Shown here one piece after another: positions 25,794-27,034 of a stretch of DNA of 32,000 nt (the stretch's first letter is position 1; each line of letters opens with the position of its first letter). The stretch is from the NCBI RefSeq assembly GCF_000012905.2, contig NC_007493.2:2850001-2882000 (forward strand). Reading direction: 5' to 3'. The notes below the pieces were generated by a model, which was not told where the DNA came from, did not search any database, and was given only the letters and a program-made list of their open reading frames with translations. This DNA is from Cereibacter sphaeroides 2.4.1 (lineage in GTDB: Bacteria; Pseudomonadota; Alphaproteobacteria; Rhodobacterales; Rhodobacteraceae). Made by a program: the position numbers and the translations under genes.

Positions 25794-27034
25794 TGGCGCT
25801 CCGCATCCTGCAGATCGCGCACGATCATCCCGACTGGACGAGCGGCGGCACCGAGATCGTGGCGCATGACCTGCATCGCGCCCTGTCGCGCCGCGGCCTC
25901 GACTCGCGCTTCCTTGCGGCCGCGACCTCGCTTCAGCGGCCCGAGGCGATGGCGGGCAGCCTCGGCCATCTCGGCGAGGACATGGTGCTGCGCACCGGCG
26001 GCTACGACCGGTTCCTGATGAAGCGGCACGACGGGCTGCGCTGGCTGGAATCGGTCCGGCGCCTTCTGACCGATGCTGCGCCCGATGTGGTCCATCTGCA
26101 CGGGCTCGACCGGATCGGGGCAGAGATCCTGCCGGCTCTTCGCCGCTTCGCCCCGGCGGCCCGCATCGTCATGACATTGCACGACTATCAGATCATCTGC
26201 CCGAACGAAGGGTTGCTGCTCACCCGCCCCGACGGATCCCGCTGCCGCGGCGCCCGGCCCGACAGCTGCCGCGCCTGTTTTCCGGAGCTCGGCGCCGACC
26301 GGCACGCCCTGCGCAAGACCTATCTCGCGACCCTGCTGCAGGGCGTGGACTGTTTCCTTGCCCCGAGCCGCTTCCTGAAGGACCGCTTCCTCGACTGGGG
26401 CCTGCCCGCGACGAAGCTGCAGCTCATGCCGAACGCGGTGGCTCCGCTCGCGCTGATGCAGGACAAGCCGCGGGTGCGACGGGACCGCTTCGCCTTCTTC
26501 GGCACGCTCGCCCTGCACAAGGGCGTGCTGACCCTGCTCGAGGCGGCGGCGCAGCTGAAGGCCGAGGGCGCGGAGCTGCGGCTCGCCTTCCACGGCGGCC
26601 TGCGCCATCCCGAGCCGGCCTTCCGCACGGCGTTCGAGACGGCGCTGGCGGCGGCACGCCCCCTCGCCCAGCACCCCGGTCCCTATGACCGGGCCGCGCT
26701 GGCCAGCCGGATGGCCGATGTGGATTGGGTCGTGGTGCCCTCGCTCTGGTGGGAGAATGCGCCGCTCGTGATCCTCGAGGCGCAGGCCGCGGGACGGCCG
26801 GTCATCGCCTCGGGCATCGGCGGCATGGCCGAGATGGTCAAGGACAGCGAGACCGGCCTCCTCGTTCCGCCCGGAGATGCCGCGGCCCTTGCCGAGGCGC
26901 TGCGCACGGCTGCGGGGGATGCCGATCTCTGGGCGCGGCTCGCGGCGGCGCAGCCCCGCACCAGCCACGAGCGCTTCGTGGACGCCCATCTCGATCTCTA
27001 TCGGACCCTTCTGGAGGGGAGGCACGCGGCATGA
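25793..27034 (+). CDS. GT4-family (GT-B, retaining) glycosyltransferase, copy a, with Cys4 insertion
   Basis: 413 aa. The C-terminal GT4 core is VPSLWWENAPLVILEAQAAGRPVIASGIGGMAEMVKDSETGLLVPPGD (E-x7-E motif). The N-terminal Rossmann domain carries C-x14-C-x7-C-x2-C at residues 136-162. Confidence 0.85.
   Translation: MALRILQIAHDHPDWTSGGTEIVAHDLHRALSRRGLDSRFLAAATSLQRPEAMAGSLGHLGEDMVLRTGGYDRFLMKRHDGLRWLESVRRLLTDAAPDVVHLHGLDRIGAEILPALRRFAPAARIVMTLHDYQIICPNEGLLLTRPDGSRCRGARPDSCRACFPELGADRHALRKTYLATLLQGVDCFLAPSRFLKDRFLDWGLPATKLQLMPNAVAPLALMQDKPRVRRDRFAFFGTLALHKGVLTLLEAAAQLKAEGAELRLAFHGGLRHPEPAFRTAFETALAAARPLAQHPGPYDRAALASRMADVDWVVVPSLWWENAPLVILEAQAAGRPVIASGIGGMAEMVKDSETGLLVPPGDAAALAEALRTAAGDADLWARLAAAQPRTSHERFVDAHLDLYRTLLEGRHAA

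Follow-up and report, generated by a model that had tools for sequence, protein, structure and literature searches.

Two GT4 glycosyltransferases of Cereibacter sphaeroides share a conserved four-cysteine insert that may form a metal-braced acceptor loop

INTRODUCTION

Why do two paralogous GT4 glycosyltransferases of one operon carry four cysteines at exactly the same spacing, within a segment that ordinary members of their family appear to do without? GT-B glycosyltransferases are generally held to be metal-independent (PMC12022483), and a cluster of four cysteines in such an enzyme invites the question of whether a metal is bound, and for what. The two enzymes, here called GT4a and GT4b, are encoded in a stretch of 32,000 nucleotides of Cereibacter sphaeroides 2.4.1 (contig NC_007493.2, positions 2,850,001 to 2,882,000 of the forward strand; G+C content approximately 70%), which we refer to as the window. 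An original prediction for this DNA proposed a C-x14-C-x7-C-x2-C insertion in both paralogues, with a putative metal-binding role. We followed this proposal through the motif itself, its place in the fold, its conservation among homologues and its genomic setting.

RESULTS

The motif is present in both paralogues

Translation of positions 26198–26278 yielded CPNEGLLLTRPDGSRCRGARPDSCRAC in GT4a, and that of positions 29616–29696 yielded CAHHGQMIKARSHSLCLRASASDCGLC in GT4b. When the codon positions were checked, the four cysteines were confirmed to have identical spacing in the two proteins: in GT4a the codons lie at 26198–26200 (Cys136), 26243–26245 (Cys151), 26267–26269 (Cys159) and 26276–26278 (Cys162), and in GT4b they begin at 29616 (Cys137), 29661 (Cys152), 29685 (Cys160) and 29694 (Cys163). 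The strings quoted in the original prediction contained the correct motif, although the residue ranges attached to them were slightly off; the strings included a flanking I and F, and therefore span residues 135–163 of GT4a and 136–164 of GT4b. The features of the locus are summarized in Table 1.

Table 1. Genes and motifs of the locus, with positions counted from the first letter of the window
Feature	Position	Strand	Length	Description
Second RTX repeat protein	21312..22625	-		divergent; PF00353, E 5e-58
Small RTX calcium-binding repeat protein	22728..23687	+		ExpE1/NodO-like; first operon gene; PF00353, E 7e-64
Partner protein A	23712..25793	+	693 aa	distant ExpE2-like (GT2-like); weak ExpE2 similarity
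GT4a	25793..27034	+	413 aa	GT4 (GT-B) glycosyltransferase; orthologue of S. meliloti ExpE4/WgeD
GT4a insert	26177..26293	+		residues 129-167; contains Cys136, Cys151, Cys159 and Cys162
GT4a His130	26180..26182	+		GT4 catalytic-site His in TLH[DE][YF]; six residues before the first Cys
GT4a motif	26198..26278	+		C-x14-C-x7-C-x2-C; Cys136/151/159/162
Partner protein B	27031..29211	+	726 aa	ExpE6/WgeF-like
GT4b	29208..30485	+	425 aa	GT4 glycosyltransferase; TTG start; orthologue of S. meliloti ExpE7/WgeG
GT4b motif	29616..29696	+		C-x14-C-x7-C-x2-C; Cys137/152/160/163
Type I secretion ABC exporter	30400..32000	+		ExpD1-like; extends beyond the window; Pfam hits

The residue numbers of GT4b presuppose a start at the TTG at 29208. 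This is most likely the actual start; the codon shares bases with the stop of the upstream gene (TTGA) and lies 9 nt downstream of the Shine-Dalgarno-like word GGAAAGG. The longest GT4b open reading frame begins at a GTG at 29082, and the 42 residues that it would add are not matched in homologues.

Over their whole length, the two proteins share 36% identity, and both belong clearly to GT4 according to Pfam. The scores for PF13439 were 66.3 bits in GT4a and 47.9 bits in GT4b (cut-off 28.5), and those for PF00534 were 82.2 and 87.2 bits, respectively (cut-off 26.4). GT4b has four cysteines in total, all of them inside the motif, and GT4a has five, the fifth being the non-conserved Cys187.

The cysteines lie in an insertion between strand β5 and helix α5

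The proposed status of this segment as an insertion was borne out by the Pfam spans and by alignment with ordinary GT4 enzymes of the same genome. Among the 11 Pfam GT4 N-domain matches in the genome, the motif was found only in GT4a and GT4b and was absent from the other nine. Positions 2–166 of the PF13439 model are covered by 199 residues in GT4a, compared with 154–164 residues in four other GT4 enzymes of the genome, and in the alignment these four displayed a gap of 20–30 residues exactly between the strand that ends in TLHD/EY and the following helix. The insertion is thus placed between strand β5 and helix α5.

We examined AlphaFold2 (AF2) models of both proteins, which had mean pLDDT values of 96.6 (GT4a) and 96.8 (GT4b), and values of 96–98 over the insert in both. 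In the GT4a model, strand β5 (residues 124–128) is followed by a coil bearing Cys136, and helix α5 spans residues 168–182. Between them, an isolated β-bridge at 143/150 (144/151 in GT4b) forms a small hairpin, which Cys151 immediately follows in GT4a, and a short helix (156–162 in GT4a, 157–163 in GT4b) bears the CxxC pair, its two cysteines one turn apart. The two models, obtained independently, display an identical layout of the insert.

The overall fold of GT4a is the GT-B arrangement of two Rossmann domains. VIA-align gave a Z score of 35.4 to the sucrose-phosphate synthase SPS (6KIH) with 369 residues aligned, 33.4 to BshA and 32.6 to PimA, and the Foldseek E value was 2e-18. In the Foldseek and VIA-align comparisons with the PDB, which weigh the overall fold, only ordinary GT4 enzymes appeared among the matches listed. 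Sequence searches of the PDB started from the complete protein, from the family profile, from a 62-residue profile of the motif and from two variant proteins; they matched only the C-terminal domain and returned no chain with the motif. A search of the ESM Atlas with the isolated insert gave no usable match.

Strand β1 occupies residues 4–9 of the model, and a signal peptide is absent. Because the first strand begins at residue 4 in this way, GT4a and GT4b are predicted to be cytoplasmic, a compartment in which disulfides are unlikely.

The insert adjoins the catalytic histidine

A structural comparison of GT4-type enzymes found that only one Gly, one His, one Lys and one Glu are fully conserved (PMC12022483). 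The catalytic set is intact in both paralogues (G18/G19 of the GG loop, H130, K243 and E321-x7-E329), each member being at least 90% conserved in the family, and the His130 column in particular was H in 116 of 120 representative homologues. Judging from motif position, this set probably corresponds to Gly22, His151, Lys243 and Glu321 of DGD2. The conserved GT4 histidine touches the donor sugar, and SPS and BshA are inactivated when it is mutated (PMC12022483); the equivalent residue has been discussed for DGD2, SPS, BshA and PimB' (PMC12022483, PMC2988379).

In PimB', His118 ends strand β5 and is followed by the β5–α5 loop (with helix α5'), a flexible element of the cleft; the acceptor is bound by the N-domain (PMC2988379). 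Because of this loop position and of the distance of only six residues between the catalytic histidine and the first cysteine, the Cys4 insert would, by analogy with the general GT4 architecture, substitute for the flexible acceptor-side loop of the cleft in the N-lobe. The invariant Arg174 on helix α5 is a candidate acceptor contact.

The four cysteines are strictly conserved in the family

To assess conservation, 1.84 billion cluster representatives were searched, and 853 clusters matched at E ≤ 1e-30. We aligned 120 full-length representatives of 50%-identity clusters, each 29–57% identical to GT4a. The four motif columns were C in 119, 118, 118 and 119 of them, and the residues between the cysteines varied freely. 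In a second alignment of 109 sequences, where the mean column identity was 30%, seven columns were invariant, four of which were the motif cysteines; the remaining three were R175, G248 and E353 in GT4b numbering.

We also scanned genomes, one per species, and obtained at least 596 matching stretches, from which the best 80 loci were analysed. In these loci, nearly all from Alphaproteobacteria, all four cysteines were retained in 149/149 GT4 copies. The spacing was x12–16, x7–8 and x2 in 144 copies; four others had a longer first spacer, and one had x13, x8 and x1. The first spacer, ranging from x12 to x25, is the only one that varies freely, and its length variation maps to the predicted hairpin loop. 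The second and third are nearly always 7 and 2, with x8 and x1, respectively, as rare variants.

Natural variants without the motif were confined to two full-length representatives, P0137 (W, H, A, C at the motif positions) and P0175 (C, D, A, R), each of which lacks three of the four cysteines. The simultaneous loss of three cysteines, in these two events only, fits a single cooperative site. Both proteins have kept the TLHDY motif and could serve as natural comparison cases. No exchange of cysteine for histidine was seen at the motif positions in approximately 400 sequences.

These results sustain the earlier suggestion that selection acts on the cysteines themselves, which show strict conservation among orthologues and within both of the ancient paralogue clades described below. 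Chance or mere shared ancestry is ruled out as an explanation, since the cysteines have been kept in two paralogue clades and in several orders of Alphaproteobacteria.

The locus has a counterpart in the galactoglucan cluster of Sinorhizobium meliloti

The genes form what appears to be an operon for slime synthesis and secretion. Each GT4 gene lies directly downstream of a large GT2-like partner gene, and the gene junctions consist of overlapping stop and start codons. The stop of partner protein A overlaps the start of GT4a, and the gene for partner protein B overlaps both the stop of GT4a (ATGA) and the start of GT4b (TTGA). Downstream of the exporter, outside the window, a gene for an HlyD-type membrane-fusion protein is followed by unrelated genes. 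In locus L003, a 340-aa open reading frame with no Pfam hit (3513–4535, minus strand) lies between the membrane-fusion gene and a gene for a DnaE-like polymerase.

Plasmid pSymB of S. meliloti was found by tblastn searches of plasmids, and its open reading frames were then compared with the Cereibacter proteins. GT4a was 45% identical to a 420-aa pSymB frame (ExpE4/WgeD) in the same gene order, and GT4b was 53% identical to the ExpE7/WgeG frame. The bit scores were in accordance with this pairing: GT4a scored 314 against ExpE4 and 246 against ExpE7, and GT4b scored 449 against ExpE7 and 272 against ExpE4. On these comparisons, GT4a and GT4b are regarded as the orthologues of ExpE4/WgeD and ExpE7/WgeG, respectively. 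Partner protein B matched a 742-aa frame at the ExpE6 position (27% over 674 residues, E 1e-48), and the ABC exporter was 44% identical to the ExpD1 frame.

Partner proteins A and B have no Pfam hit, whereas ExpE2 of S. meliloti, to which (with ExpE6) they are distantly related, has a recognizable GT2 domain. Between partner proteins A and B themselves there is hardly any similarity (E 0.04).

WgeD and WgeG are described as putative galactosyltransferases in reviews, where these functions are predictions, and ExpE1 is listed there as a calcium-binding protein that ExpD1/D2 secrete, a step required for EPS II (PMC1403797, PMC3233446).

The module is widespread but patchy

The best 80 loci were nearly all from Rhodobacterales, Hyphomicrobiales, Rhodospirillales and Acetobacterales. 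A module consisting of an RTX protein, a GT2-like protein, in some cases a methyltransferase, a Cys4-GT4, a second GT2-like protein and a second Cys4-GT4, together with the exporter, was present in most of them, and a match to partner protein B was found in 77/80. The GT4 enzymes at the first and second positions fell into two clades (70/70, support 1.0). Such a clean separation indicates that the duplication of the GT4 gene is old, that the motif predates it, and that both lines have kept the cysteines.

In a sample of other Pseudomonadota genomes, the motif region was found in 6/300, and in 0/10 genomes sampled from the same family. The module thus looks like a patchily distributed accessory locus. 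Despite its absence from the 10 same-family genomes sampled, a 97% identical copy occurs in Cereibacter johrii. The arrangement also differs between groups: the Rhodobacterales-type loci (L004–L016; Cereibacter, Paracoccus and Amaricoccus) have no ExpE3 methyltransferase gene and have the exporter genes downstream, and most Hyphomicrobiales loci (in the compared set L017–L083) have ExpE3 and an upstream exporter.

Four proteins (P0159, P0160, P0205 and P0216) are natural fusions of a Cys4-GT4 with a GT2 domain, in either order, with the motif kept; P0160 has an extra N-terminal GT61-like domain. Three further proteins (P0217, P0267 and P0274) have two GT4 domains, no Pfam GT2 domain and related cysteine inserts at the same place. 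Like GT4a and GT4b, they have LH[DE]x followed by four or more cysteines in each GT4 N-domain, and their N-domains are approximately 35–40 residues longer than the Pfam model. However, their spacings differ from those of GT4a and GT4b, being C-x12-C-x7/8-C-x2-C, C-x2-C-x8-C-x8-C-x2-C and C-x12-C-x2-C. Because both kinds of protein keep their inserts, the insert is characteristic of a wider polymerase-like GT4 group and does not depend solely on a separate partner. A structural or acceptor-site role of its own is therefore more likely than docking alone, with contact to the partner being possible.

DISCUSSION

A metal-braced acceptor loop is the preferred explanation

We consider it probable (approximately 0.6) that the four cysteines together make up a single tetrathiolate metal site; a structural Zn(Cys)4 centre is its likeliest form, and it would brace the enlarged β5–α5 loop of the acceptor-binding N-domain. 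The four conserved thiolate ligands that a Zn(Cys)4 site requires are present in nearly all of the aligned homologues. Metal binding, the identity of the metal and the role at the acceptor site are all inferred. In this mechanism, the centre would cross-brace the β5–α5 loop of the N-terminal Rossmann domain in these retaining GT4 enzymes, where a loop of approximately 38 residues would replace the short flexible one that lines the cleft of ordinary GT4 enzymes. The first ligand would be placed right after β5, the second at the end of the small β-hairpin, and the third and fourth one turn apart on the short helix. The metal would make the loop a rigid wall of the acceptor site, against which the growing glycan would be held and which might also touch the GT2-like partner encoded immediately upstream.

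Alternative explanations

One alternative is that the module, with or without a metal, is mainly a protein–protein interface that docks the GT2-like partner encoded upstream or drives oligomerization. The tight coupling of each Cys4-GT4 gene to a large ExpE2/ExpE6-like gene through overlapping stop and start codons, and the near-constant presence of the partner protein B match (77/80 loci), are what this hypothesis would lead one to expect, and TibC offers a precedent in which a finger drives dimerization. The natural GT4-GT2 fusions (P0159, P0160, P0205 and P0216), which occur in both orders, also fit; however, the same fused proteins retain all four cysteines although a docking site is no longer needed. 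Related inserts are found, moreover, in the double-GT4 proteins (P0217, P0267 and P0274) that have no Pfam GT2 domain, and the insert is placed at the cleft beside the catalytic histidine and not on an outer face. We therefore regard an interface as the main function as unlikely.

The second alternative retains the tetrathiolate site but replaces zinc with iron, either as rubredoxin-like Fe(Cys)4 or as a small Fe-S cluster, and has it act as a sensor of iron or redox state by which polysaccharide synthesis is switched. C. sphaeroides is a phototroph that is exposed to oxidative stress, which would suit such a sensor. The ligands are strictly cysteine and never histidine, and zinc sites sometimes tolerate the exchange of cysteine for histidine. 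The one Cys4 finger documented so far for a GT-B glycosyltransferase, that of TibC, binds Fe(III) and not zinc. On the other hand, the CxxCxxC pattern typical of 4Fe-4S clusters is absent, genes for Fe-S assembly or electron transfer were not found in the 80 loci, glycosyl transfer does not require redox chemistry, and structural Cys4 sites in enzymes are mostly zinc sites. A sensor of this kind seems rather improbable to us, while for the metal as such the present evidence fits zinc, iron and an Fe-S cluster alike.

A more speculative idea, drawn by analogy, is that the Cys4 loop recognizes the co-encoded RTX β-roll (ExpE1-like), in the way that the iron finger of TibC follows the β-helix of TibA, and that the module glycosylates the type I secretion substrate, or builds a glycan on it, before export. 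Such recognition would explain the joint inheritance of the RTX protein, the exporter and the pairs of Cys4-GT4 enzymes, and also the need for ExpE1 secretion in galactoglucan production by S. meliloti, but we consider it very unlikely.

Finally, two disulfides or free thiols without a metal, which the even number of cysteines and the fact that the metal is deduced from sequence and models would allow, are scarcely credible in a cytoplasmic protein without a signal peptide, where a helical CxxC one turn apart with two distant cysteines is a common layout of metal sites and the loss of three cysteines at once is more in keeping with a common site than with two separate pairs.

Implications

The literature, searched as full text, yielded no paper in which a GT4 enzyme, or ExpE4/ExpE7, is described as having a Cys4 or zinc site. 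The papers searched contained no biochemical work on members of the ExpE4/ExpE7 type and no mention of their cysteines, and nothing was found on this locus in Rhodobacter or Cereibacter. GT4a and GT4b are ordinary members of a catalogued but little-studied subfamily, and the putative Cys4 brace is a form of the GT4 fold that has not been described before; none of the GT4 structures matched here shares a comparable metal-binding insert.

If the site is real, it would define a large and easily recognized GT4 subfamily with a metal-braced acceptor loop, given the number of clusters and genomic stretches described above, and would provide a simple handle on the wge/wgd pathway of the galactoglucan type, whose biochemistry is virgin ground. 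The site may also explain how these enzymes grip a polymeric acceptor or keep hold of their degenerate GT2-like partners. For annotation, the combination of TLH[DE][YF]xxIC...C...C..CFP and PSxWWEN could mark enzymes of the ExpE4/ExpE7 type.

Comparison with known systems

The exp/wge-wgd galactoglucan (EPS II) cluster on pSymB shares with the Cereibacter locus the order RTX, GT2-like, GT4, GT2-like, GT4, and the Cys4 motif is present in both ExpE4 and ExpE7, as in GT4a and GT4b. Unlike the S. meliloti cluster, the Cereibacter locus has no gene for the ExpE3 methyltransferase, and genes of the ExpA or ExpC type were not identified next to it. Partner protein A has, in addition, diverged much further from ExpE2.

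The analogy with TibC that accompanied the original prediction is a loose one. It holds in that the TibC/AAH autotransporter heptosyltransferases are GT-B enzymes with an inserted Cys4 metal module, which is essential and takes part in protein contacts, but the lobe, the spacing and the enzyme family all differ. The iron finger of TibC (C339-x2-C342-x15-C358-x11-C370) surrounds Fe(III), caps the C-lobe approximately 20 Å from the cleft, and is needed for dimerization and for binding of the TibA β-helix (PMC4358343). The insert of GT4a and GT4b, in contrast, belongs to the N-lobe and comes six residues downstream of the catalytic histidine, and TibC is a heptosyltransferase of a different GT-B family. 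TibC was not among the sequence or fold matches listed for GT4a. Its finger type, as in the BAHT heptosyltransferases, was rejected for the present motif, whose spacing is x14, x7 and x2 and which follows β5 in the N-lobe. Since TibC holds iron, iron is nevertheless a possible metal for the site of GT4a and GT4b. The classical zinc ribbon and treble clef were also rejected; these require two CxxC (or CxxH) knuckles, and GT4a and GT4b have one CxxC, with the first two ligands 14 residues apart.

The canonical GT4 enzymes (SPS tll1590 6KIH, BshA, PimA, PimB', MshA and DGD2) have in common with GT4a and GT4b the overall fold, the Gly, His, Lys and Glu residues and E-x7-E, but none of these structures matched the Cys4 segment in sequence. 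The difference is concentrated in a single loop: between β5 and α5, PimB' has a short and flexible connection, whereas GT4a and GT4b have approximately 38 residues with four invariant cysteines.
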